From Escherichia phage E20: DNA of 64,000 nt. Below the pieces are notes generated by a model. The model saw only the letters and a list, made by a program, of their open reading frames with translations. It was not told where the DNA came from and made no database searches. The stretch lies in sequence record OP745616. The stretch is one strand, 5' to 3'. Shown in pieces: positions 36,636-61,170 of the stretch. How positions within the stretch are numbered: position 1 is the stretch's first letter; the number at the start of each line of letters is the position of its first letter. The position numbers and the translations under genes are program-made.

Positions 36636-36666
36636 AGCCCCTCCTTTGAGGGGCTTTTTTATTTTA
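36636..36666. terminator. Bidirectional terminator at the convergent junction of plus-strand genes and minus-strand late genes
   Basis: AGCCCCTC-CTTT-GAGGGGCT flanked by A-rich upstream and TTTTTTATTTT downstream; overlaps vRNAP stop. Confidence 0.7.
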
Positions 36667-39600
36667 GTTTACTAAGTTCATCCAAGGGTTCAGGTTGTGA
36701 GCACGAAGACCCTGACCAAAGCCCCAAGAGTAATCCAGACTACCCTTAGCAGCAATACTAAAGATGTTGTCCTGAATAGGTAAGCCAACGTTACCAAACA
36801 TGGTAGGGGTTGGAGCCAGCATCGCCATTGCTGCATGAACCGGGTTGTTACGAATCATGGACACTGCAACCTTAGCTGAACGAATCTTAAAGTTGTAGAA
36901 CCACATCAAACCAACACTTTCCATATACCCACGGAAGCGACCTGGTAAACGGTCATAGTTAACGAACTCTTCCGTTACACGTCCCAGTGCTTCTTCACGA
37001 GTCTTACCTTTACGCTGAGTCAGTTCATCATAGATGATTGCTTTAGCGATGAAGTCGGAGTACTCAACAGTCTTCTGGATACCCTGGAACAAAGCAGTAT
37101 CCTTAGTGATAAGTGCATAACGACCAGCAGTACGTACAGACTTAGGTAATTTATCAGCCAGCTTTTCCATGTATTCGTGAAGTTTGCCCTCAGTAATCAA
37201 GATGTCATCACGACCAATACCAGCATCTGCAATTGAAGAGAACTCACCTGCTTCTAACAGAGGCCAGATACTCATACGCTTATGGCTATCAGTAATAGAC
37301 TGAATTTCAGCCTTAAGTTTACGAATCTGGTTCGGGTTAGTAGCTGCACGTAATTCTGCTTCTGCATCTACCTGACGCAGACGAGATTTAAGATACTGGT
37401 TAATCTCAGCAGTTTTCTGTGGAATGCTCTTAGCAATATTCTTAACAGGTACACCACGAGCAACCATCTGGTAAAGGTTAGCCAAGAAGTTAACAGCAGG
37501 TACGACTACTGACTTAACTACAATCAGCGTCTTAGCTTCTTTAACTAAGTTTTGAACCAGGTTCTCACCACCCATTGTGTACTTATAAGCACGGTTGCCA
37601 AATACACCCAGCATAGCTTTCTTGAAGGTATCCAATGTTTCCGGGGACCAACGAGAATTACCTGACCAGGCATCTCCAACGGAAGCTGCACGATAACCTA
37701 GTGCATCATTCAGCATGTCACGACGTACCCACAGTTCACCTTCACCGAACAAACTCTCTGCTTTCTGGCGTGTTTCACTATTCATCAGCTTAAGAGCATC
37801 AGCAGTTACTGGGTCCAGTTTAGAACCAAGAAGGTTAACGTACTGGGACTTATTAGCAGAAGACATCTTAATGTCATTCTCATACATGCTATGCAGGTTC
37901 TCAATCAGCATATCGTTGAAACGCTGAGCCTTAGCTTCTTCCACCTGACGACCACGCCATACACCTATTGCACGGGCAAGATGGTTTTCACCTTCAATGT
38001 GTTTCAGCATGTTAGGGTCAATGGATTGTTCATAGGCAACCACATTACCTTTATCGTCATATACAGGCATCAGTGGTTCATTACCACGTTCCCCACGAGC
38101 CAATGCTTTAGTGATACGGTCTACGGAAGGCTTGTCAGTAATACGACCAGCTACCATGGAACCCATCGTAAAACCTGTGCCGATGTCTACACCACCAGCA
38201 GTATTGCGAACGTTTTGTAGGATACCCTGTGAGAAAGGAGCTTGTGCCTGTACCGGTGCAAAATAGTAGCTACGTGCTGGACCACGATTAGCGGAGCTAC
38301 CTTGATAAGTACCCAGACGTACATAGGACTTCTCAATCAAATCACCAAACTGACTATCTTCAGCAACAATCAGATTAACACCTTGTTTAGTCTCACTCGG
38401 GATATGTCCTTTGTACTGGTTCAAGGTTGCACGCATATCAGATTTGGCTTTAGCCATTTCATCTTTACGCTGACCAACCAGGTAAGAAGTAGCAAAATCC
38501 ATTCCATCAACTTCTGATTGAGCCAGTGAAGATAACATCTCACGGTCGGACTTGTTCATTGCTTCCAGTGCATACAGGGTAATCAGCTTATCCAGTTGAG
38601 CTACATCTACAGTAGAACGAGCAGCCTGACGTTCGCCCAGCATACGGGAGATTGCAGTAGCATTACGCAGCAGGTTATTACCGACTGTACCGTTAATCAT
38701 GAACTGAGCCAGTTGCTTAGATTTACGACTAATCAGAGGCCAGTTACGGCCTGCTTGTTTCTGTAAATCTGCTTCCAGCTTATTCACTTCACGGTCAACA
38801 ATCTTCTGGTCAGACAGCAAGTCACGGATTTCAGCCAGAGACATGGTGTCACGCAGAACAGCCAAATCAGTTTTACCCATACCAGTGTGCATTGCTTTCC
38901 ACTCATCGTTAGTCAGCTTACGGCTGAACTTAGATGCGATAGTGGTAGGCAGATGTTCACGGAACTGCTGACGATCTGCCTGCACCTGTGCACGCACTGC
39001 TTTAATCAAATCGTATACAGAAGCATTACTCTTAGTACGACCAGTTAAGTCATTAACCAGGTCATGGAAAGGTTGCCATACCTTACCCTGGTTCATTGCA
39101 GCCATAACACCTTCAGCTACGATTGCACCATTCTTCTCTGTAGCAATAGCAGCTATCAGTTGTGCAGCATGAGCAGCACCTTTGACCAATGGATTCTTGG
39201 TATTAGCTGCAACTTCACGAGCACTTTCTAAAGCACGGGTAGACAGTGCATCAATAGAATCCACCAGATACTGGTTAGAACGGTCAATAGCATTACCACT
39301 AGGAGTAGCAACAGAATCATATAATGACTGTGCATTGAGGCTAGTCTGCATGATTGTTTGAGCCAGTGCATCCATACCTTCCTGTACGTTGGTAGCTTTA
39401 GTGTCACCTGCTACACGGGCATTCAAGCTAGACATTGCAGCAGTACCGATGTTAGTCAGCATTGCATCAATGGTATTCCCAGATTTCTTATCTGCTTTCA
39501 TAACAGGAATGTTAGCCAGTACGTTACGTACTTCTTCGCTTACCATTGCCAGACCAACAAAGGTAGGCAGTAAGGAAGAACGACCCTGTGCGTCAAACTC

Positions 39601-42600
39601 AATATTGTTAGCACCCATGATGGTATCGAACTTCTGCTGAGCATAGTAACGGTCAGCTGGGTTAGTGCTATCCGGGTCAGCCATGAATGCTTCAACTGTC
39701 AGGTTCTTAGTAACGTGTGCATAGTATTCCTGTGCCCGAGAAAGAGCAGCCGGACTAATAGCAGCTTCAATAGCCAAAGCAGCAACGATATTAGTGAACA
39801 GGCGTTGTTCCTGCATATTCATAGTAAAGCCATGAGCCTGAACATCACGGGTTACTTTAGTTGCATTCACTACTGCATCAGAGAACTTACCTTTACGAAT
39901 TACTTGCTGTACTGGTTCAGAACCAATGTAGTTAGTAATCAGTTTGTCAAAAGTCTGTCCCAACTCTTCCAGACGGATATTGTCACCATACGCCTTGTTA
40001 TGGAACAAGGTAGTGTCTTTGGATACAGCAGCCGTAGGAGCCTGTCCACGCATAACTACAGAAGAGTTAAACAGCAAGCCGGAGAACATATCATCTGCAT
40101 TAGCAGGTGCTTTCTTACGACCAAATACCAGACGCTTGATTGCCTCATACACAGACTGAACCATAGTTTTCAATGCAGTGGTTTTCTTCTGCTTACCAAT
40201 CAGTTCACGGTTGGTTAAACCCCAAGCCATATACTCATTCAGTGCAGCAGCTTTAGCCATTGCAGGTTCAATAAAGCCATTAGACAAGTGACCGTTAATG
40301 GTATTGAGAGCATCAGCATATGCTTCACGTACTGCCGGGGATTCATTCTTAACATCCAGAGTACGGAACTGGTTCATCAGGTCTTCAATATTCTGAACTG
40401 CTTCATTAGGAGTACCCTCATAGTGAGCCAGTACAGATTCAAAAGTAGAAGCATGTACTAATTCATGAACCAGAGTCTCTAAGGAAGGGGTAACTAAGTA
40501 GATGGTCTTATCATCAAAGTTAGTCCAGCCATATGCATTACCAGCTTCGGCAGCTTCAATATCTTCTGGTGCTGGGCGAGTAATGTTCTTCTCAATAGCA
40601 TAAGCATCCAGTTGAGCAGGAGTACCGTAAACAACCTTGTAGTCTTTAGCAGCAAGGGATTTCTGTACTTCTTTCAATACTGCTTGCTGTTCAGGAGACA
40701 TCTCTTTAGCCAGCCTAGTGATAGCAGTATTGGACAGCATACGTACACCAGACTTCAGTACACGACCAACCTGTTCCATTGCTGGTACTTCTTTAACAGG
40801 TACTTCTTTCACTGGTTCTGCTTTAGCAGCACGTACTGCATCGCGACGCTTGTTTAATTCAGCATCAAACAGTTCGTTCAGCTTAGCTACTTGCTGGTCT
40901 ACAGTCAGACCTTCCAGAGAGATTTTACCGTTGTTCACATAAGGAGCACCCACAGCAGCCATCTGATCAACAGTGGTCTGTACCTGGTTCATTACTTTGT
41001 GGCGAATATCTACACCCAGAGCAATGTTACGCAGGTTACGTTCAATAAGGTTAACACCGGAATTCTTAATCATATCAATCTTATACTGCCTGTCTCCCTC
41101 AACACGACTGATATGAGAAAGCTGTTCAAAATCCAAAGCAGAACGGGCAATGTCATCAATTGTCTTATCCGACAACTTATTAAAGTCTACGTTCTTCATG
41201 AACTTAGAGAAGGAGTCATAAACATTCTTGATAGGATTACCCTGCCAAGAAGTATATACAGCCTCATTAGCTTTACGGCTTGCATCAGTGATGTCATTGA
41301 TACCAATGTTCATACCATCAAAGATTTTCAGGGTATTCTTCGGTGCACCTTTCATAGTAGAAAGGGTCTGCATCATCATGCCATCACCAGTACCAATGGT
41401 CATAAATGGAATACCTGCAACACCTGCTTGTGAAGGAGCATAGACGCTCATTGGCACACGCATACGGTCATCTAAGTTGGTAGCCAGTACTTGGTTAGCA
41501 ACATCAGTATTCTCACTACCAGCAATGTAGAAAGTTTGTGAGCCAGTCTCAATCATTGGAGCCAGTGGAGATAATGATTCCTGGATTTCATTAAGTTCTT
41601 TCTGCGTTAAGAAATCGCCCTTCTTCCAGGTTGGGTCTTTTTCTTTTTCTGCTAGTTTAGCCTGTACTGCTTGTTGGAACATATCCTGCAATACTAAAGA
41701 CTGAATTTGAGTAGCCTTCTGCAAGTTCTCAGTGGAGTGCATCAGACCTTCACCAACAGTGAACCGGATACTTTGTCTCATTGGTTCAACGAAGAAGTGC
41801 AACATATTCTCTTGTAAGTTCTTAAGGGCATCACCAGATACAGTAAACTCCTGGGGATCTAACTCACCAGTCAGAGCACCATCTACCTCCTTAATAAATA
41901 ACTTACCTTTACGCTTGGCTGGAATTTTACCAGTCAGTGCTTCCATAGAAGTAAGGAAAGTATCCAGCATAGCCTGAGCATCCGCTTCAGACGCAGCCTC
42001 CTTACCAAACATTGCCATAGCTGGGGAAATGCTAGGGTCAGCAGCACGTGCTTGCAGAACGTCACTGAGGCGTTCATAGATGGTATCAGTAATTGCACTA
42101 ACCATCTTGCCAGCAATACCACGAGCACCAGAACCATAGATGGTAATGGTCAGTGGGTTTTTAGCTATACCACGTTTCAGGTCCAGAGTACCGTCTTCAT
42201 TCAGGTTAAAGTCTTTAATGAACAGGTCCATTAACTTCTGGAGATGATTCATCTGGCTCATAATCGGAACGTTGTTACGGTAAGCACTACGTAATTCATT
42301 TAGATAGAATTGCAAACTATTGGTAGATGCTTCATATAAGTCAATGCTGTCATCATATGAATGATGTTCATTCATAGTCTTACCGGCTTTACCGAAGAAC
42401 AAGCCACCCTTAGCAGTATTCTTAATCCAATTTTGGGTGAACTTACCACCAGTCATTAATACCATTGCGTTGATTGGGCCGTTGGTTACACCATCAGCTT
42501 CGACATACAGTGGGGTATTAAAGTTGGCACGGTCATCGCTGTTCAGGTAACGGGCATATTCCATCAGAGCCATGAGAGCTACAAAGGATTTGTTATCACC

Positions 42601-45600
42601 CAGGGAGGACTTCAGAATATCTACTGCATCTGTGGGTAAGTAACCAGACTTATTAAATTCAACCATCATATCAACAGCAGGCTTCAGATTGCCTTCCAGA
42701 GCTTTGGTCAGATTTTCAGACATAGCTTCACGGGACATTTTATGTACCTTAATGCCTAATGCCTGAGCCAGTCCCAGCTGGAAGTCAGAGAACGCTTGGC
42801 TATTTTCATTACTCAGGTCAATAGTAGAGAAGGTTGGCAGAATTGCTTCACGAACCAGCTTACTGGATTGTGGGTTGTTCTTACCAAGCATCTGCATACG
42901 ACCTACTCGGGTCATGTTATAGCCATAGTGAATGGGGGTATCCAAACCATTCTCTTGTTCTTTTAGCTGATTAATTAAACCGAACAAGGAATCATATGCC
43001 ATAGATACTGATAAGTTCTTACCTTCCAGTGATTTGGCATTGTTCTTATTCAGCAAATCGGGATTAAGAGTACCAGCACCCATTAGTTCCAGAATGCTGT
43101 CTCGACCCAATGCTTCATAGAAGTTAACCATCGGCATGTGTACACGGAACTCAGTAGCCTGTTCAGCTTTCAGTGCAGCTTTCTGTTCGGGGGTATTCTT
43201 AACAGCAGGATTACGTAACTGAGTTTGGGCCACGGAAGGAATGTCGTCACCAAAGTACATTTTCTCTTCCGGATTTACCAACACAGCTTCTTCAATTGCT
43301 GTAGGGAAATTATTAATAGGGTCTTTATCAGCCAACTTATTAATAGTGTACAGACCAATAGTCTTATTAGAGTCCGGGTCAATCTCAGACACATCCAGCA
43401 TAGTCTCTGTAACTGCACCCATCTCAATGAGGGAAGACAGAATCTCTGTAGCCATTGCCACTGGAATGCCTTTTGTATAACCCAGTGGTGCATTAGGGTT
43501 ACGATTCAAACCCCAATAAGATTCAATCTTCTGAGCCAGTGAGCTAGTAGCTTCGACCAGGGTCTGGGCATTCTCAAATTCAGCCAGAATACTTTCTGGT
43601 AACAAGGATGCTTCTACTCCAGTAATGGCAGCTACGTCTTTTATGTCTTTAATGGCAGCATTCTGTGCAGCAGTCAGTCGCCATTGCAGACCAGCAAGCA
43701 CGGCAGTCTCTAACAACTGGTCATTGAACTTAAAGGTATCACCATCTTTTTCAACGATATTCAGCAGTTTGCCACCTACCCAACGGTTAGCTTCAGTACC
43801 TTCTGCAAAACGTTTACCAACGTTCTTATTAGCAAGGAACTTAGCCAGTCGTTCAGACAGAGTAGTCTTCAGTGTTTCCCCAAAGTCCATCAAATCTTGG
43901 TAACGTTCTAACACATCACCCGTGAGAGCGTTATTTTCTTTTTGAGTGAATGCTTCAAAGCGAGCAGCAGAAGACAGTGCTTGCTTAATATCAGCTAAAG
44001 GAGATTCAGAACCAATGGTACGGGACTTGGGTTCTTCTGGCAGGGTAAATGCTTTCAGGAACTGGTTCGGTGTCTTTTCATTGTTATAGACAGGGAACAC
44101 TGTTTCCATCTCAGAAAGAGGTTTGCCACCTACTGTATAATCTGCTTTTAGCTGAGCCAGCGATACTTCATCTTTCTCCACGTTGTTAGTGTTACGGCCA
44201 GAGGTATCTACACCAACCAGAATCTGTGCATTATTGGCTTCAACGAAAGATTGAACAGTATTGAATTGTTCAGCGGTCAGCTTTTGATTATCAAACAGTT
44301 GTAGGGACACAAACGGTTGTTCACTGCCTTTATAGAAAGTAGAGCGAATAGAACCAGTATCCAAAGACATATCACGATAGCCATCATGCCCAAATACGTC
44401 AGACAGGCTGATATGGTCGCCATTAGAACCAACCACAGTACCATCAGCAAACAACCACGGACTCTCTCTACGGTCACCACTCTTATTAAGAGTTTCCTGT
44501 GAAATGGTATTTTCTTTCACATAAGCATCTCTTTCAGATTCAGTAGGTTGCTCAATGGTATCCTCATTAGTGAGGGTAGCATCTACTGTTTCAGGCTTAG
44601 TAGTAGAAACTTCTTCTGTTTTTGGGCTAGTCTCCTTAGTAGGAGCAGTCTTATTTTCTACCACTGGTTTAGCTTTAGGCTGTACAGTAGTAGTGTCCTC
44701 TTGCACTGGTGCAGGAGTTTCATCAACCTGATTCACTGGTTCATTAGTCTGTTGAGACTGAGTGGCATCAAGACCACCTTGACGGAACTCTTTAACTACC
44801 TGGGCAGCAGGCTTGTTCAGACGTGAATCCAACGAGGTAACTTTCACATGAGAAACATTAAGCTCCGGGTAAGCCGTAGCAAGTGCATTAGCAATATCAG
44901 CTACGGTCTTGGCTTCCAGTCCTACTTGCTGGGCAAACTTAACAGACTTGGTATCATACGGATTGACACCGAGGCCAGTACGACTACGTACCCATTCACG
45001 GGAAGGCGAGAGAGCCTGATAATGAACAGACTTATTCTTATCCGCATTCCCCGAAATCAGATGCTCATTCAACGCTCCGACCTTATTCTGCATGTGCTGG
45101 GCGAACTTCATAAAGTCGCTCAGATAAGCGGAGGCCAAATCGAAGTTACCAGAGTTATACGCAGAACGAATGCGTTTCGCATGTTGCAACGCAGAGTACT
45201 GTCCTTCATTAGAACGAGACTCATCGGTTTTAATCTGTTTACTAACAATGTCTTGAGGACGTAAGCCTAGTTCTTCTGCTTTAGCGTCGAACTCACGTGC
45301 ACCCTGTAACAAGGCAGCAGCAGATTGCAGGGCAGCACGTTGACGATTCCCTAATGTAATCTTACCTTCACTCGCATGTTTCAGAATCATGTTAACTGAA
45401 TCTGCATCCAGTACTTCTGGAGACACATCAGCAGCCATAGCAATATTGTTTGCTTGGGCTTGATTAGCTTCTTCAGTAGCTTTCAGCTTACCTGCTTCAG
45501 CCTGTTCCTGAATCATGGAATGGATGGCACGGAATGCACGAAGTACTTTAGGGGTATTCTGTACGTTAGCCATCAGGCCAGAGAACTGGTCTACGATTGC

Positions 45601-47496
45601 AGCAGCAGGGGAACCTTGTTCCAGATTAGCCAGAGCACCCGGGTCACGGTTAATGAAGCTATCCATAGACATGATGTTGTCGTACATCTGGATTGCAGCT
45701 TCCATTTGAACGTTGGGGTCTTCGGCAGTATTAACCAAGTCAGCCATCTTCTGAATAGCTTCTACACGGTTAGTGGAACCAGAAACAGCTTCACGGATTA
45801 CTGGGTTAACTTGTTCCAGTTCTACTGGGTCAAACTTCATTGCCTGAGTTAAGTCAGCAGCATACTGGGTAGCAGCAGCTTTCTCTTCCGGAGAAATATC
45901 CATTGCATCTACTGCTTCCTGTACAGTTGCTTGTGCTTGTTCTGCCTGAGCAGCAGCTTCCTGTGCAGCAGCATTAACCGTAGCATCAGCTACAGGGGAT
46001 GCTTGTTCATTACGCTTGGCAACTTCTTCACCACGTTGAACCAGAATGTTAGTAAGAGGAGATGCAGCTTTTGCTAGTGTTTTACCAACCAGAGAAGCAC
46101 CAGCCAGGGTAGTACGAAGAGTAGGGCCAGCAGCAGCACCGGCAGCTTTAACAGTTGCACCAGGGACTTGAGCAACTCCAGCACTACCGAAGCCATAAAG
46201 TGCACCAAGACCTGCTTGCTCACCAACCCCTTTGAGGGTGTCACGGGATGCATCAACGTTTTCTTTGATTGCAGTATTCTGTGCGAACTGACCAAAGCCG
46301 GATTGAATACCTTCCTCTACAGTTTCACGCAGCATATTAGAACCAGCACCTGCCAGTGAACCTACCTTAAGTGGGTTAAGTTCAAAGCGAGATACCAGTG
46401 GGCCGGTAGCAGCAGCAACTGGAGCAGTTAAGCCAGCAGCAATGATACCTGTTTCAGATGCAGTCTGACGACGTGCTTCATCAGGAGATAAACCATCAGC
46501 AATATGCTGTTGGTAAACAGGAGACTTACTTGCCAGTTCTTGGTGGGACATCTTCATGATTTCAGAAGCAGTCTGTTGGTATGCACCACCAGCTTCCATA
46601 CCACCGATTGCAATAGCAGGTGCAGCAACACGACCAGCAGACAGTGCAACCTGTGCAGGACGTGAACCTAACCCAGCAGCTAAGGTAATACCCTTAACAG
46701 CTTTATCACCACCTACCATTACTTTACCGAGTGCAGATACACCACGAATAAGTGGACCACCGGTAAAGAGGGAACCAACACCTTCACTCAGTCCGTCAGA
46801 GGCAGCCATACCATTATCAAGTGTATTAGCAACAGAATCGAAAGCATCACGACCAATACGAGACAAGGAGGCAACCAAATCGTTCTCCCCATTTTTGATG
46901 TCTTGTTCATAAAGTTTCTGATTCTTTTGAGCAGAAATCTGGTTCTGATTCTGAACAACCTTACGGGTAGCATTCAGTGCATCAGACTGTAGATTGTGTA
47001 CGCCTTCATTCAACCAATCCATCCCGGAAGCAATGGTTGCCCCGGCATTATCATTGACCAAACCTGTGCCAAGAGCAGCAATGCCCCCAAGGGTATTAGC
47101 AACACCAAGACCAACACCAGAAAGAGTATCGCCAAATGCTTCTGCGTTAGTACGTTGTTTAGATAAGTCCTGACGTACAACATCCGCAGCATTAGCTCGG
47201 CTATTAAGAATTTGTAGACCTTGCTCATTACCGTATTTATTAATGATTTCTAATGGGGAGGCTTGAGTGAAATCTGCCTGAAGTGAACCTGGTTCGAATG
47301 CACCGATTCCAAGATTACCTACACGTCCGGTCTGGAGATTGTAAGCATTCTCTGGGGTTAATTGGAAAGGGATTTGCCCTTGTGCAGCTTGCTTCTGAGA
47401 GGTTGCAGTAGAGACATCGACTCGCTTAGCATTAGTGATGCTGTCTGCGAAACCTGCCAGACGGTCAAATGTTGACATAGCATGTTTCCTGTTCAA
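36664..47496 (-). CDS. Virion-encapsidated giant RNA polymerase (vRNAP, N4 gp50-like), 3610 aa
   Basis: Single 10.8-kb ORF; central T7-like RNAP motifs (A-like EADGVTNGPINAM, B-like KNPLTITIYGSG, C-like KIFDGMNIG); position at distal end of late operon. Confidence 0.9.
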   Translation of the reverse strand: MNRKHAMSTFDRLAGFADSITNAKRVDVSTATSQKQAAQGQIPFQLTPENAYNLQTGRVGNLGIGAFEPGSLQADFTQASPLEIINKYGNEQGLQILNSRANAADVVRQDLSKQRTNAEAFGDTLSGVGLGVANTLGGIAALGTGLVNDNAGATIASGMDWLNEGVHNLQSDALNATRKVVQNQNQISAQKNQKLYEQDIKNGENDLVASLSRIGRDAFDSVANTLDNGMAASDGLSEGVGSLFTGGPLIRGVSALGKVMVGGDKAVKGITLAAGLGSRPAQVALSAGRVAAPAIAIGGMEAGGAYQQTASEIMKMSHQELASKSPVYQQHIADGLSPDEARRQTASETGIIAAGLTAPVAAATGPLVSRFELNPLKVGSLAGAGSNMLRETVEEGIQSGFGQFAQNTAIKENVDASRDTLKGVGEQAGLGALYGFGSAGVAQVPGATVKAAGAAAGPTLRTTLAGASLVGKTLAKAASPLTNILVQRGEEVAKRNEQASPVADATVNAAAQEAAAQAEQAQATVQEAVDAMDISPEEKAAATQYAADLTQAMKFDPVELEQVNPVIREAVSGSTNRVEAIQKMADLVNTAEDPNVQMEAAIQMYDNIMSMDSFINRDPGALANLEQGSPAAAIVDQFSGLMANVQNTPKVLRAFRAIHSMIQEQAEAGKLKATEEANQAQANNIAMAADVSPEVLDADSVNMILKHASEGKITLGNRQRAALQSAAALLQGAREFDAKAEELGLRPQDIVSKQIKTDESRSNEGQYSALQHAKRIRSAYNSGNFDLASAYLSDFMKFAQHMQNKVGALNEHLISGNADKNKSVHYQALSPSREWVRSRTGLGVNPYDTKSVKFAQQVGLEAKTVADIANALATAYPELNVSHVKVTSLDSRLNKPAAQVVKEFRQGGLDATQSQQTNEPVNQVDETPAPVQEDTTTVQPKAKPVVENKTAPTKETSPKTEEVSTTKPETVDATLTNEDTIEQPTESERDAYVKENTISQETLNKSGDRRESPWLFADGTVVGSNGDHISLSDVFGHDGYRDMSLDTGSIRSTFYKGSEQPFVSLQLFDNQKLTAEQFNTVQSFVEANNAQILVGVDTSGRNTNNVEKDEVSLAQLKADYTVGGKPLSEMETVFPVYNNEKTPNQFLKAFTLPEEPKSRTIGSESPLADIKQALSSAARFEAFTQKENNALTGDVLERYQDLMDFGETLKTTLSERLAKFLANKNVGKRFAEGTEANRWVGGKLLNIVEKDGDTFKFNDQLLETAVLAGLQWRLTAAQNAAIKDIKDVAAITGVEASLLPESILAEFENAQTLVEATSSLAQKIESYWGLNRNPNAPLGYTKGIPVAMATEILSSLIEMGAVTETMLDVSEIDPDSNKTIGLYTINKLADKDPINNFPTAIEEAVLVNPEEKMYFGDDIPSVAQTQLRNPAVKNTPEQKAALKAEQATEFRVHMPMVNFYEALGRDSILELMGAGTLNPDLLNKNNAKSLEGKNLSVSMAYDSLFGLINQLKEQENGLDTPIHYGYNMTRVGRMQMLGKNNPQSSKLVREAILPTFSTIDLSNENSQAFSDFQLGLAQALGIKVHKMSREAMSENLTKALEGNLKPAVDMMVEFNKSGYLPTDAVDILKSSLGDNKSFVALMALMEYARYLNSDDRANFNTPLYVEADGVTNGPINAMVLMTGGKFTQNWIKNTAKGGLFFGKAGKTMNEHHSYDDSIDLYEASTNSLQFYLNELRSAYRNNVPIMSQMNHLQKLMDLFIKDFNLNEDGTLDLKRGIAKNPLTITIYGSGARGIAGKMVSAITDTIYERLSDVLQARAADPSISPAMAMFGKEAASEADAQAMLDTFLTSMEALTGKIPAKRKGKLFIKEVDGALTGELDPQEFTVSGDALKNLQENMLHFFVEPMRQSIRFTVGEGLMHSTENLQKATQIQSLVLQDMFQQAVQAKLAEKEKDPTWKKGDFLTQKELNEIQESLSPLAPMIETGSQTFYIAGSENTDVANQVLATNLDDRMRVPMSVYAPSQAGVAGIPFMTIGTGDGMMMQTLSTMKGAPKNTLKIFDGMNIGINDITDASRKANEAVYTSWQGNPIKNVYDSFSKFMKNVDFNKLSDKTIDDIARSALDFEQLSHISRVEGDRQYKIDMIKNSGVNLIERNLRNIALGVDIRHKVMNQVQTTVDQMAAVGAPYVNNGKISLEGLTVDQQVAKLNELFDAELNKRRDAVRAAKAEPVKEVPVKEVPAMEQVGRVLKSGVRMLSNTAITRLAKEMSPEQQAVLKEVQKSLAAKDYKVVYGTPAQLDAYAIEKNITRPAPEDIEAAEAGNAYGWTNFDDKTIYLVTPSLETLVHELVHASTFESVLAHYEGTPNEAVQNIEDLMNQFRTLDVKNESPAVREAYADALNTINGHLSNGFIEPAMAKAAALNEYMAWGLTNRELIGKQKKTTALKTMVQSVYEAIKRLVFGRKKAPANADDMFSGLLFNSSVVMRGQAPTAAVSKDTTLFHNKAYGDNIRLEELGQTFDKLITNYIGSEPVQQVIRKGKFSDAVVNATKVTRDVQAHGFTMNMQEQRLFTNIVAALAIEAAISPAALSRAQEYYAHVTKNLTVEAFMADPDSTNPADRYYAQQKFDTIMGANNIEFDAQGRSSLLPTFVGLAMVSEEVRNVLANIPVMKADKKSGNTIDAMLTNIGTAAMSSLNARVAGDTKATNVQEGMDALAQTIMQTSLNAQSLYDSVATPSGNAIDRSNQYLVDSIDALSTRALESAREVAANTKNPLVKGAAHAAQLIAAIATEKNGAIVAEGVMAAMNQGKVWQPFHDLVNDLTGRTKSNASVYDLIKAVRAQVQADRQQFREHLPTTIASKFSRKLTNDEWKAMHTGMGKTDLAVLRDTMSLAEIRDLLSDQKIVDREVNKLEADLQKQAGRNWPLISRKSKQLAQFMINGTVGNNLLRNATAISRMLGERQAARSTVDVAQLDKLITLYALEAMNKSDREMLSSLAQSEVDGMDFATSYLVGQRKDEMAKAKSDMRATLNQYKGHIPSETKQGVNLIVAEDSQFGDLIEKSYVRLGTYQGSSANRGPARSYYFAPVQAQAPFSQGILQNVRNTAGGVDIGTGFTMGSMVAGRITDKPSVDRITKALARGERGNEPLMPVYDDKGNVVAYEQSIDPNMLKHIEGENHLARAIGVWRGRQVEEAKAQRFNDMLIENLHSMYENDIKMSSANKSQYVNLLGSKLDPVTADALKLMNSETRQKAESLFGEGELWVRRDMLNDALGYRAASVGDAWSGNSRWSPETLDTFKKAMLGVFGNRAYKYTMGGENLVQNLVKEAKTLIVVKSVVVPAVNFLANLYQMVARGVPVKNIAKSIPQKTAEINQYLKSRLRQVDAEAELRAATNPNQIRKLKAEIQSITDSHKRMSIWPLLEAGEFSSIADAGIGRDDILITEGKLHEYMEKLADKLPKSVRTAGRYALITKDTALFQGIQKTVEYSDFIAKAIIYDELTQRKGKTREEALGRVTEEFVNYDRLPGRFRGYMESVGLMWFYNFKIRSAKVAVSMIRNNPVHAAMAMLAPTPTMFGNVGLPIQDNIFSIAAKGSLDYSWGFGQGLRAHNLNPWMNLVN

Positions 47497-47572: not shown

Positions 47573-49537
47573 TTACCGATTTTGTCTTGGTTGCATATAC
47601 TCGGGCAGTCCTTGTGCCTGACGTAAGTATCGTGCAGCACGCTCTTCATCTTCCTTGGCTCGTGCCCTGTCCACACTAGCCTGTGACTGGAAACCTCTTG
47701 GAGCCAGGTTAGCTGGGTCAGCTTGAACTTGTGCCTGTGCAGCTTGGAGCATTGCAGCAGCTTTAGTAACAGCTTCCTGTCTTGCAGGTAACAATGCAGT
47801 AAGACCTGTTTGTCCGGTGTTAATCTTATTCTGGGTATTTGCCAGTGCAGCTACAGCAGCATCATATGCAGTCTGTGCTGCCTGAATATTCTGCATAGCT
47901 TGAGCACGACCCAGGTTACGAACACTACCTTCCAGTGGCTCTCCCCGTTTCACACCCTCAATTAACTGTTCTACCTGACGGTCATTAAGACGCATACCAT
48001 TACCAGCTTCATTGGTAATGAATGGGTTAACTGCATCAATAGCACGGCTAATATAACCCTCCGGTACACCAGTCTGTGCACGTTGCATAACAGCAGCAGC
48101 CATAGCTGGTGACATATTCCCACGTTGAGAAATATCATTCAGTCGGTTCAGTACCCAGTTACGGTCAGCACCTTTAAAATCACCCTCCAACAGACGGTTA
48201 GCAATCTCACCTACTGGGGTATTATCAGTGACAGTACCAAGGAAGTCGGTGTTAAGACTACCGGTGTTATCCTGCATAGAACGAGTACCAATCATACCAG
48301 TAGCCAAAGTAGATACTGCCTGATTACCTTGATTATTCTGAACCATAGCGAGTGGGTCAGCCCCCACTTCTGCTTGGGCAATAACAGGTTTAATCTGTTC
48401 CCAAGTCATATCCTTATAAGCACCCGGAGTAGAGTTAGGTAGAGCAGCCCAGGTATCTTTAAGATTACCATTCTTGCGAGACTCGAAGATAGCCTTACCA
48501 ATCTTATCCTGGTTCTCAGGAGAAAGCGGCTGGCTTTGCCAATCTGAACCAAGAACTTTAGGAGCGAAGTCTTGCAGAGTAGCTTGGTTAATCTGGAATG
48601 CACCAACAGGTGAAGCACCCTGGTTCGTCTTCATACCTTCTTGATGCTTAACTACATCACCAATACTCATTTGAGTAATAGGAGTAGAAGTACCAGCAAA
48701 CTGGTAAGTAACATCATAAGGGGAACCCTGACGTGTACCAGCAGTACCCGGAGCAGATGCAGCACCCACACCATTACCGTATACACCCGGGTAAGCACTA
48801 GCCAGTAATCCCTGCAAACGTGCCTGTGCAACCGGGGACAGGTTCTTACTATATGCTTCTGCCAACAGACGGGCATCATTAGGGTTCTCAGCACCACGGG
48901 TAATCTGTGACATTACACCCATAGCAGCCTGACTATCAGCATCATTACGCTGAGCAACACCTAAATCAAAACGATTCTGAGCTTGATTAATAGCCTGACC
49001 ACCCTGACCTTGAAGACTACTCAGCATGTCCAATTGCTGGTTAGCAGGGAGTGCAGACAATGCATCACGGGTCTGACTTAATGCAGCATTAATACGGTTC
49101 TGGTCACCGGACTGATAAGCCTCAGACAGTAAACGAATAGCAGGGGAAGCATTATCTAATGCAGAGTTAGTATCCTGCAAACGTCCAAAGATATAAGCAT
49201 TGTAGTCATTGGTTCCCTGCTGACCTTGTTGAGTCAGTAATGTACCTGCTCTCTCGTCCAGATTCTGGAGAGTACGCTGGTTTATCAGTGAAGGGTCAAC
49301 CCCCTGAAACAATGCACCAGATGCTAAAGCATTACGGTACTCATTCGGGTCTTGATACTGCATAGCATTCATCATGACGGCATTGCCAGCCTCCTGCTTG
49401 GCAGCGTTCTGGAAATTACCCAGTGCATCACTTAAGCCGGAGGTGGCGTTACCAATCATGTTGCCAAATGTGCGAATGCTGTCACCAACTCCAGAGAAGT
49501 TAGGTGCATCAACATTTCTCCACGTTATCTGAGCCAT
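47573..49537 (-). CDS. Virion protein (N4 gp51-like), 654 aa; possible lytic transglycosylase-like segment
   Basis: Synteny; Q/N/A-rich; segment EG...GASPVGAFQINQATL loosely resembles SLT-domain core. Confidence 0.5.
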   Translation of the reverse strand: MAQITWRNVDAPNFSGVGDSIRTFGNMIGNATSGLSDALGNFQNAAKQEAGNAVMMNAMQYQDPNEYRNALASGALFQGVDPSLINQRTLQNLDERAGTLLTQQGQQGTNDYNAYIFGRLQDTNSALDNASPAIRLLSEAYQSGDQNRINAALSQTRDALSALPANQQLDMLSSLQGQGGQAINQAQNRFDLGVAQRNDADSQAAMGVMSQITRGAENPNDARLLAEAYSKNLSPVAQARLQGLLASAYPGVYGNGVGAASAPGTAGTRQGSPYDVTYQFAGTSTPITQMSIGDVVKHQEGMKTNQGASPVGAFQINQATLQDFAPKVLGSDWQSQPLSPENQDKIGKAIFESRKNGNLKDTWAALPNSTPGAYKDMTWEQIKPVIAQAEVGADPLAMVQNNQGNQAVSTLATGMIGTRSMQDNTGSLNTDFLGTVTDNTPVGEIANRLLEGDFKGADRNWVLNRLNDISQRGNMSPAMAAAVMQRAQTGVPEGYISRAIDAVNPFITNEAGNGMRLNDRQVEQLIEGVKRGEPLEGSVRNLGRAQAMQNIQAAQTAYDAAVAALANTQNKINTGQTGLTALLPARQEAVTKAAAMLQAAQAQVQADPANLAPRGFQSQASVDRARAKEDEERAARYLRQAQGLPEYMQPRQNR

Positions 49538-49549
49538 GATGGTTTCCTA

Positions 49550-50014
49550 TTAACGGGTTAGTTTATTAGCTGCAATGTAAGCATCAGCTGAAGACTGGTC
49601 ACGGTTCTCTGCTGTAGCACGACTACGAGCACGGTCTTCCAGTGCAGTGTTATAAGACTTAATCTGGTTATTCAGGTTAGTGTTAGTAACACTCTTAGTA
49701 AAGTTCAACTGGTCTTTGGCTAACTTGTTAGCCTGGAAACCACTATAGATACCAGCTAAGGAACCAAGTGCACCAAGTCCTAGTTGGAAGGTAGGTACAT
49801 TCATACCAAACTGATTAGCTGAACCAGACAAGAAAGAGGTAGGGGTAGTTAACCCTGTACCTGCATTCATACCAATAGCTGCACCGGGGGCATAGTTCAT
49901 AGCTGGGGTATTAAAGTTCTGATTGTTATTAGACATCCAAGACATAGCCGCTGGCTGTGGGGTTTGGTTGCCTGTTAAGAATGACAAATCCATAGGGATT
50001 CTCCTGTTAAACAA
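49550..50014 (-). CDS. Virion protein (N4 gp52-like), 154 aa
   Basis: Synteny; Gly/Asn-rich. Confidence 0.45.
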   Translation of the reverse strand: MFNRRIPMDLSFLTGNQTPQPAAMSWMSNNNQNFNTPAMNYAPGAAIGMNAGTGLTTPTSFLSGSANQFGMNVPTFQLGLGALGSLAGIYSGFQANKLAKDQLNFTKSVTNTNLNNQIKSYNTALEDRARSRATAENRDQSSADAYIAANKLTR

Positions 50015-52661
50015 GGTCAGTATTAAGAGTCATATCAGAGTAGCTGCCAACCATGTTTAAAGACATGTCAGCTATATCCGAACCAGTCATAAGAGTACGT
50101 GAGAGGAAAGAATCCAACGACTCCATTGACACAAATTGCATAGGGTCAATTACACCCTGCCCAGCAGTACCAAACATTTCTTCATACTGCTTATTGATTG
50201 CCATCATATCAGTATTGTACTGCTGCATTACATTCTCTGCTTTCTGAATAGTAACAGCCGTAGATGCATTAATATACTGGCTAATGCCGTTACCTACTGA
50301 ACTGGTAAGTTGCATGATGTTCTGAGCATTCATCATTTCACTGGCTAAAGTAGATAAGGATGTACCAGTAGACAGAGCAGTACCAACGTTCATGGCTACC
50401 ATTGAAGCAACAGCAGCAATGATAAAGCCTAGCTTATCACCAAAGAGTGAAGTGGATACTTTAGTGATAATAGATACCAGAATCATTGCAGCAATGGCGT
50501 TTGCTACAGCACCTACTATTACAGCAGCCAATCCAACAAAACCAAGTGATGCACCAACTGCACCGTATGCCCCAAGAATACCTGCACCACCAGCACCCAT
50601 AGTGAATACGGATACAACAACAGCAACTACAACAACCACAATCTTAAAGGCAGATGTTGTATACCATTTCTGCTTAACTTTCTTATATGAGTTCATTACT
50701 AAGTAGGAACAAGCAGTAGACAGTTGAGTACTACGAGTCAGTGACATTGAACGGTAGATGTTAGTGTGCAGTGGGATAATGAATCCACTCTCTTCTGCAT
50801 CACCCATTGCTTCAGCAACATCAATGCTTACTGACTTATTTTTATATACCCTGTTATTGTGATTTAAACCAAGTACCCTAAGTTTACGGTAGGTATTGTT
50901 ACCATCCTGCCAAAGCAATTCATACTCCTGCATAGAATAAAACGTAGTGGTAACTTCCAGTTTCTTAGTCGAACCAGAGTTACTAGCAGTTCGTATATTC
51001 TTACGGGTAAGTGTTATATCTCCTGCATACCTGGCTCGAAGTTGCCCTTGCTTAGCACCAGTCCATGCTTCACCGGAATGGGTAGTTTCAGACGCATAGT
51101 TCCACCCAATGGTCATGTCGTACTTGTACTGTTTATTACTATGTACCCTAAACTCTCGCTTAGGTATAACAGGGTATTCTGGAAGAGGTGGAGGTGTTCC
51201 AACAGTTTGACCTTCCTGCCTGTTCCACCATTCTACGTATGCATCAACTGCATCATTTGCTGCCTGATAACCTGCAATCACTGCTTCCAGTGTGGGGTAG
51301 GTTGGGTCAGGTGGGAATGCTTCAGTAGCCATCTGAAAGAAACGGTAGATGTATTCCTTAGCAGTATCCTCAGGAGTATTAAGAGATACACCGAATGTGC
51401 CATAGATGTATTGGATATCACCTATGTCGTCATTCTTCTTAAGCTCAGTCACTACTTTATTGAGCTTACCACCAGTAGCTTTATAGAGTGCCTTCTTGCA
51501 GTGAGGGTAGATTGGGTCATTCTCTACCCATTGCTTATCATTCCTGATTGGAATGAATGGATAGAATCGGTTATCAGTAGCTTCAGTCTCAAACAGAGAA
51601 TCGAGTGCAACGTTGCCAGAGTTCTGCTTATAGATAAGCATCTTAGGTGTACCAACAGCAGTCATCTCAGTATCAGTACGAGTAGTCTGGGATGAGTACT
51701 TACGAACCAGTGTCTCTGTAGTTGTAGTGATTGTATCAGTGCGAGTAACACCTCCACCTAAATCAACAACATTGGTAGTTACAGTAGTACTGGATTGAAT
51801 CTCACCAAACTTTGTATGAGTCATTACCCTGTCAGATACAACTACAGTTACATCATCAGGTTTCTCAGTGAACCCTCTACGGTAAACCTTAACGTAAGAG
51901 TTCCAGTTATCCACACTTGGTTCAGTAACAGTACTGTCTTCATCCGGTCTACCATCAGAGTAAACAGAATGAGTCTGTATAGTCTTAGTAAGATTGGTTG
52001 TGTTAGCTGTCGTATCGCTTGAGATGGTAGTCCACAACAAAGTAGACGGTAAGTCATCCTCGTCATCATAGACAGTAGTCGGTCCTACTACTGGTGGATT
52101 AGTAGCTGGGGACTTATAGAATGTGTAATCAGCATAGAGGTATAAAGCACCTGGTTCAAAGTTAGTAGGTGTGAATGTAATGGTAGAACCTCCATCCAGG
52201 GAGGTCATAGTAATTTCATTAGTATCCTCATCAATGTCTACGTCGAATCGTTCCATGATTCGACTTGGGGCATTCTCGTAAAGATACTGATCACACCATT
52301 GCTCAAAGTCAGCAAAGCCAATCTCTGCTGCCTGAACATAGACTGATTCACCAGCAGGTGGAGTAATTTGACCCTCTATAACAGTAGGGTCAATCTTAGC
52401 CAGTACACCTAATGAAGAACCTGCCATACCAACTTCTGAGTCATAGTGGTTCTTACTCCAGCTGGAGAACAGTCGCATACGAATACCAGGCCCATTCAGA
52501 TAACTATCAGAGATAGTGTCTGCCATAGTGAAACCTGTATCAGCAACAATCTTACCGATGACTACAGTCTTCATATAGTTTGGACGCTTATGAATATCCC
52601 CTGCCATGTTATAGACAGAGGATGCTACGTATACTTTGGTCTTCCCACTGAATAAGCCCAT
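50007..52661 (-). CDS. Large virion protein with C-terminal Gly/Ala-rich multi-TM region (N4 gp53-like), 884 aa
   Basis: Synteny; C-terminal KIVVVVVAVVVSVFTMGAGGAGILGAYGAVGASLGFVGLAAVIVGAVANAIAAMILV hydrophobic cluster. Confidence 0.5.
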   Translation of the reverse strand: MGLFSGKTKVYVASSVYNMAGDIHKRPNYMKTVVIGKIVADTGFTMADTISDSYLNGPGIRMRLFSSWSKNHYDSEVGMAGSSLGVLAKIDPTVIEGQITPPAGESVYVQAAEIGFADFEQWCDQYLYENAPSRIMERFDVDIDEDTNEITMTSLDGGSTITFTPTNFEPGALYLYADYTFYKSPATNPPVVGPTTVYDDEDDLPSTLLWTTISSDTTANTTNLTKTIQTHSVYSDGRPDEDSTVTEPSVDNWNSYVKVYRRGFTEKPDDVTVVVSDRVMTHTKFGEIQSSTTVTTNVVDLGGGVTRTDTITTTTETLVRKYSSQTTRTDTEMTAVGTPKMLIYKQNSGNVALDSLFETEATDNRFYPFIPIRNDKQWVENDPIYPHCKKALYKATGGKLNKVVTELKKNDDIGDIQYIYGTFGVSLNTPEDTAKEYIYRFFQMATEAFPPDPTYPTLEAVIAGYQAANDAVDAYVEWWNRQEGQTVGTPPPLPEYPVIPKREFRVHSNKQYKYDMTIGWNYASETTHSGEAWTGAKQGQLRARYAGDITLTRKNIRTASNSGSTKKLEVTTTFYSMQEYELLWQDGNNTYRKLRVLGLNHNNRVYKNKSVSIDVAEAMGDAEESGFIIPLHTNIYRSMSLTRSTQLSTACSYLVMNSYKKVKQKWYTTSAFKIVVVVVAVVVSVFTMGAGGAGILGAYGAVGASLGFVGLAAVIVGAVANAIAAMILVSIITKVSTSLFGDKLGFIIAAVASMVAMNVGTALSTGTSLSTLASEMMNAQNIMQLTSSVGNGISQYINASTAVTIQKAENVMQQYNTDMMAINKQYEEMFGTAGQGVIDPMQFVSMESLDSFLSRTLMTGSDIADMSLNMVGSYSDMTLNTDLV

Positions 52662-52662
52662 A

Positions 52663-53505
52663 TTAGTTCAGCCCGTTGTTAGACTTCAGCTTGGTCAGAA
52701 TGGTATCAATACTTGCGTTAGTGAAACCATTAGGTGGGTTCAAGCCTTCATCAATAGTCTTCTGTGTAATCCATGCATCAGTAAACAGTTTAGATGCTTT
52801 AACTTCTGCATCACGTTGGTAAGAAGTAATCTGTTGAGAGTACAACTCTTTCTGCTTACCTACGGAACCAGTAACAGTAGCTCCATCACTGCGAGTATCC
52901 AGTGTCTGTGCACGCTGTGCTTCGGTCTGCTCAGTAATCAGTTTAAGCTGTTGAGGTAACATCTGGTCAGCATTAAACAATGCAGCACAGTATGTTTCAG
53001 ACTCAGTAGCAATCTTCAACTTAGTGAGAGCATATTCACTCTTAGCAGACAGTGCCTGAATCTTAGCTAGCACAAACTGTGCCTTAGATGCTGCCAGTTG
53101 AACACGAGCAGTAACTGCCTGAATCTGTGCCATAGCAGCAGCCCAGTATGCTTGGTCACGACCAAGTAAGAACTGAACAGCATTGCTCATGCACGATTCC
53201 ATCATAGCAATATATGCTTTGGTATATTCACCACCGGTAATACGGTTAGCTTTAAACTCAGCTTTAAGATGGTTATGTGCAGATTCCATTAATGCATCAA
53301 ACGTACCACTACCACCTACTTCACGGGTAGTAAGTGATTCGTTGGTTACTTTAGAAATAGCATCAAAGATTGGGGAATCATCACCACCAGGAATATCCCA
53401 TTCAGGGCCAGACATATCAATATCAGGGAGGGTAAAGTCATCACCCTTAGTTAACTCTTCTAGGAGTCGGTTAGCTTCTACCTCAGCAGAACAAGACATA
53501 ATCAT
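52663..53505 (-). CDS. Virion protein (N4 gp54-like), 280 aa
   Basis: Synteny. Confidence 0.45.
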
Positions 53506-53575: not shown

Positions 53576-54217
53576 TTAATCGTTCAGGCTACCAGCAGCA
53601 ATCTGTGCTTGAGCCAGTTGAGCCAATTCTGCTTCAGTCAGCGGAGGCAATACTTCAATGGAGAACTCTCGTGCTTCTGTTGCACGGATATCCGGTAAGC
53701 CATTTTTACCTTTACGAGTCGTAATGTTGATGAACTTACGTTCTTTGAGGAACTCGTAGATACAGTACGGAATATGATAACCATTGTCGGTCACTTCACC
53801 GAATGGAACAAACTTACGTACAGTACCCATATATTCGTTAGCTACGGTGATAATCTCACCAGGCAGGTCTTTCTTCTTAGGATCAAGGTTCTGGATACGT
53901 ACACGAATCAGTCGAGTCTGTTCTGCACGAATCTTCTGACCCAGAGTCATTTTCTTAACACCTGCTTCTTGTTTTTCACCCAAAGGATTAACAGCAGTTT
54001 CTTTTACTTCTGGTTCATCTTTTGCTTGTGCAGCTTCAATCTTCTCACGGAGTTTCTCAACGGAGATGTTGTTAGAGAACTTAATATTCATCAACGTTGC
54101 ACGTTGCTTAAGAACTTCAAGTTCGCTAGGCATTGCAATATCGTTAACGGTATCTTCGTTGCCCTGTACGTCCAGTTCTACGTCAGTGGTCGGTTTATCG
54201 TTAATGCTCATGTTCAT
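53576..54217 (-). CDS. Hypothetical structural/assembly protein (N4 gp55-like), 213 aa
   Basis: Synteny, immediately downstream of capsid gene. Confidence 0.45.
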   Translation of the reverse strand: MNMSINDKPTTDVELDVQGNEDTVNDIAMPSELEVLKQRATLMNIKFSNNISVEKLREKIEAAQAKDEPEVKETAVNPLGEKQEAGVKKMTLGQKIRAEQTRLIRVRIQNLDPKKKDLPGEIITVANEYMGTVRKFVPFGEVTDNGYHIPYCIYEFLKERKFINITTRKGKNGLPDIRATEAREFSIEVLPPLTEAELAQLAQAQIAAGSLND

Positions 54218-54236
54218 ATTTCCTGTGGTTCAACTA

Positions 54237-54283
54237 GTTTTATTAAGAGGGGGACTTATGTCCCCCTTGTTTTATTTAGGACT
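54237..54283. terminator. Strong GC hairpin between capsid gene and downstream gene (possible attenuator/stability element)
   Basis: AGGGGGAC-TTAT-GTCCCCCT; T-run is on the plus strand side (GTTTTATTT), so minus-strand terminator function uncertain. Confidence 0.4.
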
Positions 54284-54284
54284 A

Positions 54285-55487
54285 TTACAGAGGAGCAACA
54301 GTCTTAATCAGAGCCAGACGTTCTGGACGTTTAACCAGGATACCGTAGTACCACTTGATGGAACTGAAGCCAGTCTCACCATACGGATCATTACGGTCAG
54401 CAGTTTCTCGACCAGGCATCTTAGTCATGATGGAGAACTTAACAGACTTACCATCAGTCTGGAAGCCAATGGTAGAGAAGGAGTCATCACCAACTACCAG
54501 CATCGGGAATACGTCGTAGTGTTCTTGACCACTAACCATAGAAGAACGATAACCTGGGTTAGTAGTAACCTGAGCACCAGCACCTGCCCAATGCAGCATT
54601 TCTGGAACCTGGATAATACGGAACTTGTCGATACAACCAATCTCACCATTCATCAGAGTACCAGCATCAGCATAGTGCTGAACCTCGATGAATGCTTTGT
54701 TACCGAACAGGTCTTTCATCGCTTTCAGTTCTGGAACCAGTTCAGAACCAACGTACATTACACGAGTACCACCAAGTACTTTGGTATCAGTAAGTTTAGA
54801 ACCAGTGATGATAGTAGTCTGGGTCGGAGTACGGTTCTCAGTAAGAATCTGGTCAAGACGCATCAGGTTCTTATAAGAAACTACAGACGGGGTAGAACCT
54901 TCGCCAGTGATGGTAGCATCAGAGGTAGCAGCACCTGCATACAGTACAGTACCAGCAGCAGCCAACAGGTCTTTCTGGAGAACAGCTTCAGTCAACTGTA
55001 CAGCACCGTTCATCAGTTCACGAGACAGGTGTTCTTTCAGCTGGTCATCAGAATCAAAGTCCAGGGACTCTTGAGTAAATTCGTAGAAGAAACCGAACTT
55101 ATGAATGGAACCTTCACGAGACAGACGGGTAAAGCCTACACGGTTAACACGACCACCGTTCTCTGACAGCAGAGGCAGTTTAGAGGTGATGTTACCAACG
55201 TCTTTAGAAGAACCGTACAGGTTACCATTAACGATGGTAGCACCGTTGGCATCAATACCCTGGTCGTTAATGTTCTTATCGTCAAGCAGTGGAACGTACT
55301 CATACACCTTAACAGTCTTACCGTAGTGCTTCGGCATGTTAATGGTGTTAGCCAGTGGCATGAAGTACTGGTCTTTACGAGACTGAATAATAGCTTTCTT
55401 CAGCCAGTAATAGGTATTCATCTGGTCGGAACCAGCACCATCAATGCTAGATTTCTGGCCGTCAATTGGGGCGTTATAGTTTAACAT
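54285..55487 (-). CDS. Major capsid protein (N4 gp56-like), 400 aa
   Basis: Size matches N4 MCP (about 400 aa); position between portal and vRNAP; followed by strong hairpin. Confidence 0.6.
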
Positions 55488-61140: not shown

Positions 61141-61170
61141 AAGCCCCCAGACGGGGGCTTTGTTTTATTT
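61141..61170 (-). terminator. Rho-independent terminator after tailspike gene
   Basis: On minus strand AAAGCCCCC-GTCT-GGGGGCTTT then TTTTTGTTG. Confidence 0.65.

Follow-up and report, generated by a model that had tools for sequence, protein, structure and literature searches.

In coliphage N4, twelve gp54 subunits build the tail tube and a single gp53 molecule shuts it, as visualized by cryo-electron microscopy (cryo-EM) (Bellis et al., Nat Commun 2026; PMC13434306). This monomeric tail plug exposes its globular core and a beta-feather mostly outside the tube, while residues 29-56 and 670-716 form six short helices, the 'hydrophobic knot', which stoppers the gp54 tube; residues 9-724 could be modelled, and the study gives the 'remaining 160 residues' as 'lost in the tail lumen' (PMC13434306). 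The homologous plug of Pseudomonas phage DEV, gp74, is equally found at a 12:1 ratio (mBio 2026; PMC12892993). The partner that holds the plug differs between the two phages, as N4 gp53 is gripped by domains D9-D10 of gp65, a protein of the receptor-binding sheath, with a 12:6:1 mismatch, and DEV gp74 by the receptor-binding fibre gp56-gp55-gp54 (PMC13434306; PMC12892993). Here, we compare with these plugs the product of a gene of Escherichia phage E20 located at positions 50007..52661 on the minus strand of a 64,000 nucleotide stretch of DNA (sequence record OP745616; hereafter the window). A first-pass annotation had described the product as a gp53-like virion protein ending in a Gly/Ala-rich, membrane-inserting hydrophobic region and had proposed a role as an ejection or channel-forming protein that aids translocation of the virion RNA polymerase (vRNAP) and the DNA. 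We consider the gene very probably to be the orthologue of N4 gp53 and DEV gp74, the Schitoviridae tail plug, and the hydrophobic stretch is already explained by the published 'hydrophobic knot' of this plug.

Identity of the E20 protein

The window represents an N4-like podophage of the Schitoviridae of the Gamaleyavirus (G7C/PhAPEC5) type. As read from the list of open reading frames (ORFs) and the translation, the coding sequence starts with ATG and encodes 884 residues followed by a stop codon; a plus-strand reading of the same interval was discarded, as stops occur throughout its translation. End to end (protein residues 1-883, profile positions 1-847/850) the protein matches phrog_2220, a family labelled only 'unknown function' by PHROGs. 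A phmmer search against all sequences of the PDB gave 'Gp53' of coliphage N4 as the best match (9YFT_FA; E=0, 1055 bits, residues 1-883 versus 1-883), and identity to the N4-type gp53 P0053 is 54% over the entire length. The second match is 9ZE4_M, the 'N4 gp53-like protein' of phage DEV, for which the best-aligned stretch, residues 625-870, comprises the hydrophobic zone and the C-terminal tail. The globular core of the plug fold is present in the E20 protein, and its relatives in the PDB, by sequence as well as by fold, are the plugs gp53 and gp74 only, with no solved ejection protein matched.

Among closer relatives, PhAPEC5_57 is 98.6% identical and copies with at least 90% identity occur in 55 phage records. 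Moo19 gp70, 70% identical, has been detected in virions by mass spectrometry (MS), and a weak plug density was observed at the tip of the Moo19 tail tube (PMC11654681). The earlier designation as an 884-residue gp53-like virion protein is borne out. The genomic context agrees with that of the described phages, as the gene order is gp54-gp53-gp52-gp51-vRNAP, whereby gp54, gp53, gp52 and gp51 were matched to solved chains of N4, Moo19 and DEV; PhAPEC5 and Vibrio phage VCO139 share this order around the plug.

Pfam and NCBIfam hold no family for the plug protein or its four neighbours. Homologues are inconsistently labelled, among the records listed mostly as 'hypothetical protein', besides 'baseplate wedge protein', 'membrane protein', 'TMhelix containing protein' and 'virion structural protein'. 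The immediate value of the analysis therefore lies in annotation, that is in a named tail plug for proteins that carry mostly uninformative or misleading labels.

The hydrophobic zone and its conservation

Hydrophobicity of the E20 protein is concentrated near, but not at, its C-terminus. Every start of a 19-residue Kyte-Doolittle window scoring at least 1.6 falls at residues 665-747, with scores up to above 2, and Gly accounts for 12%, Ala for 17% and Val for 17% of residues 661-775, compared with 6-7% each elsewhere. Over a stretch of 47 positions, residues 674-720, the amino acids D, E, K, R, H, N and Q are entirely absent; this stretch is preceded by a basic and aromatic junction (residues 660-673) in which K663, W666 and Y667 are near-invariant. 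To call segments of transmembrane (TM) grade, 19-mers were rated with an in-house, simplified and position-independent Hessa hydrophobicity sum, which is not a trained topology predictor. On this scale, segments of ~19 residues with insertion-grade hydrophobicity, as in a polytopic membrane protein, occur three times, at residues 674-692 (-0.01), 714-732 (-0.71) and 744-762 (+2.24), while the best sum outside residues 660-780 is +9.2. They are the only TM-grade 19-mers among six late-cassette proteins scanned, with the best values elsewhere being 5.7 for the gp52-like protein, 9.1 for the gp51-like protein and 4.4 for vRNAP.

Downstream of the hydrophobic zone, residues 776-884 constitute a polar and conserved tail of 109 residues with 11.9% Met, predicted with low confidence to be helical (AlphaFold predicted local distance difference test (pLDDT) mostly <55). 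The Gly/Ala-rich hydrophobic region of the first-pass annotation is therefore real, extending over residues ~665-775, but it is with this polar Met-rich tail that the protein ends. TM-like helices, whose absence would have refuted that annotation, are predicted in the form of the three segments above. The GxxxG-like repeats also noted there require a distinction between the single sequence and the family. In the E20 sequence strict GxxxG occurs twice against 1.6 expected from shuffled sequences, and small-xxx-small 22 times against 17.4 +/- 2.6 (p~0.05), so that the pattern of the single sequence mostly reflects composition. Family-wide, on the other hand, small residues are near-invariant at a spacing of three to four residues, as displayed by G694, G697, G703, G707, G710, A713, G717, N721, A722/724/725 and G741-G745-A749-S753. 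G707 and N721 are invariant, and G694, G697, G703, G710, A713 and G717 near-invariant. At this helical spacing, a conserved small-residue packing face does exist in the hydrophobic zone.

The region is present wherever homologues were inspected, so that the second ground for refutation named in the first-pass annotation, its absence in homologues, does not apply either. Each of the 118 homologues with 690 residues or more possesses one to four, mostly three, comparable hydrophobic segments at the corresponding place, with a column occupancy of 0.98-1.0 in the MAFFT alignment, and the distant but syntenic gp47 of Vibrio phage VCO139 (702 residues) shows the same junction, KWYQTGIFK, followed by three hydrophobic segments and a polar tail of ~115 residues. 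When the C-terminal 260 residues were searched alone against 1.84 billion cluster representatives, 1290 representatives were recovered at E<=1e-3, 502 of them at E<=1e-30. Among the best 150 of these 1290 matches the module is covered essentially in full except in a few fragments and is terminal, on the C-terminal side, in every complete protein; the full-length proteins among them span ~670-970 residues, mostly either ~880-900 (feather-bearing) or ~735-750 (DEV-like).

Correspondence with the N4 knot

Around the hydrophobic zone N4 numbering equals E20 numbering minus 4, while residues 29-56 are numbered identically in both proteins. With this offset, the N4 knot segment 670-716 corresponds to residues 674-720 of E20, which is exactly the charge-free stretch; both knot segments align gap-free and are followed, as in N4, by a further C-terminal extension. 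Compared with 54% for the whole protein, identity to the N4-type P0053 is 68% over residues 674-720, 73% over residues 721-775 and 61% over residues 776-884, so that the hydrophobic zone and the C-terminal tail exceed the protein average; residues 29-56 are 64% identical. From this correspondence we infer that residues 674-720 of the E20 protein fold as the knot. Within N4 virions, a protein tube and not a bilayer consequently encloses the first half of the zone. The second half (residues 721-775) and the conserved tail lie almost entirely beyond the end of the N4 model at residue 724 (728 in E20); this half holds most of segment 714-732, all of segment 744-762 and the motif G741xxxG745xxxA749xxxS753.

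Residues 1-28 are the most conserved part of the protein, with a mean identity of 74% across the 118 homologues and 89% to the N4-type protein, invariant positions M1, V12, S14, N18, A20, G21 and R26, and a similarity recognizable even in DEV gp74. The adjacent N-terminal knot segment contains predicted helices at residues 29-40 and 46-55 in the AlphaFold2 (AF2) model. A beta-feather is equally predicted, as DSSP assigns strands at residues 211-234, 241-269, 272-302 and 305-334 of this model. Matches of the beta-feather to aerolysin-like proteins, a pore-forming-toxin fold, were too weak to be interpreted.

Proposed mechanism and alternatives

The best explanation, which we hold with considerable confidence, is that the protein is an N4-type tail plug with core and feather outside the tube, the knot as the cork and the remainder in the lumen beside gp52. 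Orthology, synteny, fold, conservation and the position of the hydrophobic segments derive from this analysis, while location, stoichiometry, knot and retention on empty particles are taken from the published structures of the orthologues; by extension, the same plug arrangement, with residues 721-884 in the lumen, is expected for phage E20. One plug copy would occupy the distal opening of the gp54 dodecamer, with residues ~1-665, that is globular core and beta-feather, outside. The cork of the tube would be a compact hydrophobic knot in which short helices from residues 674-720 and residues 29-56 pack together, whereby the conserved glycines and other small residues would permit tight packing. 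Residues 721-775 and the tail 776-884 would project up the tail lumen beside the pre-loaded ejection protein gp52. Upon engagement of the receptor by the receptor-binding protein of the tail, the plug would be displaced and gp52, gp51, vRNAP and DNA be released, such that the plug would act as a gate and not as a conduit.

That the protein itself is an ejection or channel-forming protein, which leaves the virion and builds, or forms part of, a trans-envelope conduit for vRNAP and DNA, as the first-pass annotation had it, appears highly improbable. TM-like helices are indeed predicted and conserved, the gene adjoins the ejection cassette, and the N4 study terms gp53 and gp54 'adjacent ejection-related proteins', but the same study found the plug, by cryo-EM and liquid chromatography-MS, on full as well as on emptied particles, and pore or tunnel activity was measured for gp52 and gp51, not for gp53 (PMC13434306). 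Pore and tunnel roles together with pre-ejection sites are assigned to gp50, to gp51, which surrounds the portal, and to gp52, which resides in the tail lumen, although not consistently, since the abstract assigns the outer-membrane complex to gp51 and the periplasmic tunnel to gp52, while the legend to Fig. 8 and the stated resemblance of gp52 to DEV gp73 imply the reverse (PMC13434306); this discrepancy bears only on how the two genes downstream of the plug are named by role. We disfavour an ejected channel as the orthologue is a single-copy protein, mostly external to the tube, retained on emptied particles and unrelated to ejection proteins; the expected likeness to podophage ejection proteins was found neither in sequence nor in fold. 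What persists of the earlier proposal is the link to ejection, as the protein acts where vRNAP, ejection proteins and DNA leave the virion, in a gatekeeping role rather than as a channel.

Several observations weigh against the assignment as an N4-type plug. Retention of the N4 plug on empty particles was seen after DNA release in vitro and not upon infection (PMC13434306), the plug density of Moo19 was too weak to be modelled or identified (PMC11654681) and no tail-tip structure of a Gamaleyavirus exists. In the AlphaFold model pLDDT is below 50 over residues 681-804 and the model itself lacks the knot; with pLDDT <50-55 over residues 681-884, knot or bundle geometry was not drawn from it. 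No homologue of gp64/gp65 is annotated in PhAPEC5, the closest complete genome (locus L002, 25803-30693). Finally, the hydrophobicity of the three segments exceeds what plugging alone obviously requires.

Such hydrophobicity would suit a cork with a second use. After the receptor-binding protein has freed the plug, the ~210 C-terminal residues might leave the lumen and the three TM-grade helices enter the outer membrane, which we regard as unlikely; with an equally low chance, and by analogy with the L-loops of phi29 gp9, the inserted helices would anchor the tail tip or nucleate or template the gp52 pore. A hydrophobic helix bundle in the lumen that exits and turns membrane-active has its precedent in phi29 gp9 (PMC6542822), and the 'double ring' density in the N4 lumen possibly contains the C-terminal part of gp53 mixed with gp52 (PMC13434306). 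On empty N4 particles, however, the plug is seen re-seated, for which the authors propose lateral displacement and re-binding via the knot (PMC13434306). The E20 segments themselves, with sums from -0.7 to +2.2, are conserved, bordered by a conserved Lys/Trp/Tyr belt and without any TM-grade counterpart in the late-cassette proteins scanned, and they combine the invariant N721 with the zipper G741xxxG745xxxA749xxxS753. Asn residues and small-residue zippers are commonly associated with helix-helix packing in membranes. The small-residue pattern is, though, equally explained by tight packing of the six short helices of the knot, and a single copy cannot alone form a DNA-sized channel. If such a two-state behaviour proved true, the single-copy plug would be the component of the Schitoviridae ejectosome that penetrates the membrane first, and in Gamaleyaviruses devoid of gp65, knot and anchor might chiefly determine plug retention.

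With respect to the C-terminal tail, which presumably lies in the tail lumen, the motif ESxDxFLxRTLMTGSDIAxMS is strongly conserved with E847, F852, R855, T856 and G860 invariant, and the family mean of Met content is 7.3% compared with 2.5% in the remaining protein. This conserved Met-rich motif suggests a specific partner in the lumen. The lumenal ~165 C-terminal residues and the knot could alternatively serve as a nucleus or chaperone for closure of the gp54 dodecamer, and may position gp52, with sealing as a by-product. Such a role in assembly, which is in itself compatible with a plug, would agree with the invariant residues of the motif ESxDxFLxRTLMTGSDIA as the signature of a specific binding partner, with the gp54 and gp53 genes being joined by TAA-T-ATG and with the unassigned lumen density possibly shared with gp52. 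We nevertheless judge it improbable that sealing is secondary: in DEV, loss of the plug-stabilizing fibre gp56 causes loss of DNA, which suggests that sealing is what matters most (PMC12892993).

If the protein is the tail plug, its holder probably differs from that of N4. PhAPEC5 has the gene order gp63-like, tailspike, gp66-like and gp67, with matches of its tail genes to tailspike and gp66-type proteins only, and the gp66-like PhAPEC5_68 matches gp66-type chains of Moo19 and N4, not gp65. In the window, the corresponding ORF 61169-63424 (minus strand, 751 residues) has only its N-terminal ~155 residues in common with G7C gp63.1 (4QNL) and CBA120-type tailspikes. The plug-gripping protein of N4 therefore appears to be without counterpart in the E20 lineage, although the N4-type beta-feather is kept in the AF2 model of the E20 protein. 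The role of residues 721-884, with their two further TM-grade segments and conserved motif, or the identity of the holder in phages devoid of gp65 would refine, but not overturn, the release model for a polymerase of ~3600 residues and the DNA.

Gene neighbourhood and coordinates

The coordinates of the plug gene, its segments and its neighbours are collected in Table 1. The gp54-like tube protein matches 9D80_C, the Moo19 tail protein, at 1e-148 and N4 Gp54 (9LC0_K/9YF4) at 3e-124; TAA-T-ATG spans its stop codon and the start codon of the gp53-like gene. The gp52-like ORF matches 9YF4_OA, the N4 '16.5 kDa protein', at 5e-42, the alignment pairing query residues 8-154 with chain residues 1-150. 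As mechanically delimited, this ORF has 154 codons with a TTG start at 50014 and overlaps the end of the gp53-like gene; the ATG at 49993 is preceded by CAGGAG, and PhAPEC5_56 measures 444 nt. The alignment from residue 8, the AGGAG ahead and the PhAPEC5 annotation make ATG 49993, rather than TTG 50014, the likely start. The gp51-like protein matches 11MN_A, a construct of residues 1-359 of the N4 '66 kDa protein', at 6e-130.

Table 1. Coordinates in the window of the gp53-like gene of phage E20, its segments and the adjacent late genes
Feature	Residues	Coordinates	Strand	Basis
Complete coding sequence, gp53-like tail plug protein	1-884	50007..52661	-	ORF list, phrog_2220, phmmer vs PDB, PhAPEC5_57
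N-terminus, MGLFSGKTKVYVASSVYNMAGDIHKRPN	1-28	52578-52661	-	most conserved part of the protein
Putative N-terminal knot contribution	29-56	52494..52577	-	N4 knot numbering; alignment
Putative globular plug core and beta-feather	1-665	50667..52661	-	
Predicted beta-feather, Thr-rich, four strands of ~24-31 residues	211-334	51660..52031	-	DSSP of AF2 model
Conserved basic/aromatic junction before the hydrophobic zone, KKVKQKWYTTSAFK	660-673	50643..50684	-	translation; conservation
Charge-free hydrophobic stretch (N4 670-716)	674-720	50502..50642	-	composition, alignment, PMC13434306
Second half of the hydrophobic zone	721-775	50337..50501	-	simplified Hessa sums, conservation
Polar Met-rich C-terminal tail	776-884	50010..50336	-	composition, conservation
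gp54-like tail tube protein, upstream neighbour	280 in total	52663..53505	-	PDB matches
gp52-like ejection protein, downstream neighbour	147 from ATG 49993	49550..49993	-	PDB match, junction sequence
gp51-like ejection protein	654 in total	47573..49537	-	11MN_A; phrog_6126 virion structural protein
Giant virion RNA polymerase gene, start putative	3610 (longest ORF)	36664..47496	-	ORF list; PhAPEC5_54 annotated virion RNA polymerase, syntenic

Elsewhere in the window, among ORFs of at least 100 codons, 19-mers with a hydrophobicity sum <=1.0 occur, besides the gp53-like gene and one antisense ORF, only in the ORF 12906-13202 (plus strand). Pfam Imm_superinfect (PF14373) recognizes its 98-residue product, in which two segments are very hydrophobic, at E 9e-17 and with 61 bits (cut-off 27.9); the product is likely a superinfection-immunity membrane protein of the early/middle region. 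The antisense ORF 53940-55163 (plus strand; listed as 54066-55166, 366 residues from ATG), which carries the other hydrophobic 19-mer, overlaps the major capsid gene and is most likely a chance ORF.

Comparison with known systems

The tail needle gp26 of P22 and Sf6 is a trimeric coiled-coil needle that is not known to carry a hydrophobic TM-like zone. As gp26 seals the tail channel after packaging and is displaced for ejection, it has been compared with the plug by the authors of the DEV study; in the PDB searches, it matched the E20 plug neither in sequence nor in fold. A literature search for other hydrophobic plugs of podophages gave only the N4 and DEV papers.

The ejection proteins N4 gp52, gp51 and gp50, or DEV gp73, gp72 and gp71, which are analogous to T7 gp14, gp15 and gp16, share with the plug the ejection step and a place in the virion, are encoded immediately downstream and behave as membrane proteins. 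They are, however, multi-copy proteins in the lumen or around the portal that are expelled to form pores and tunnels, whereas only one copy of the plug is present, mostly outside the tube, and stays on emptied particles; on the simplified scale, the best 19-mers of the gp52-like (5.7) and gp51-like (9.1) proteins are much less hydrophobic than those of the plug.

A functional analogy to the plug, without homology, is provided by the L-loops of the phi29 tail-knob protein gp9, hydrophobic helical segments which fill the lumen of a podophage tail in the mature virion (PMC6542822). In phi29, the tube protein itself, in six copies, supplies the loops, which have been shown to leave the tail and assemble into a hydrophobic helix barrel; the hydrophobic segments of E20 belong to one separate plug protein and their exit into a membrane is hypothetical.

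Within the Schitoviridae, DEV gp74 (9ZE4; PMC12892993) is shorter, with 740 residues, lacks the beta-feather, is held by the gp56-gp55-gp54 fibre and shows ~13-14% identity over the aligned structure, while the hydrophobic zone is present in both proteins. Closest is N4 gp53 (9YFT; PMC13434306). E20, as a Gamaleyavirus, differs from N4 in carrying tailspikes and in lacking counterparts of the gp64/gp65 sheath, as read from PhAPEC5 and the window ORF, but the two plug proteins are of near-equal length (884 and 885 residues) and 54% identical end to end. Both share a very conserved N-terminus MGLFSxKTK, both knot segments, the further hydrophobic segments and the C-terminal tail, and in both phages the gene is located between gp54 and gp52.

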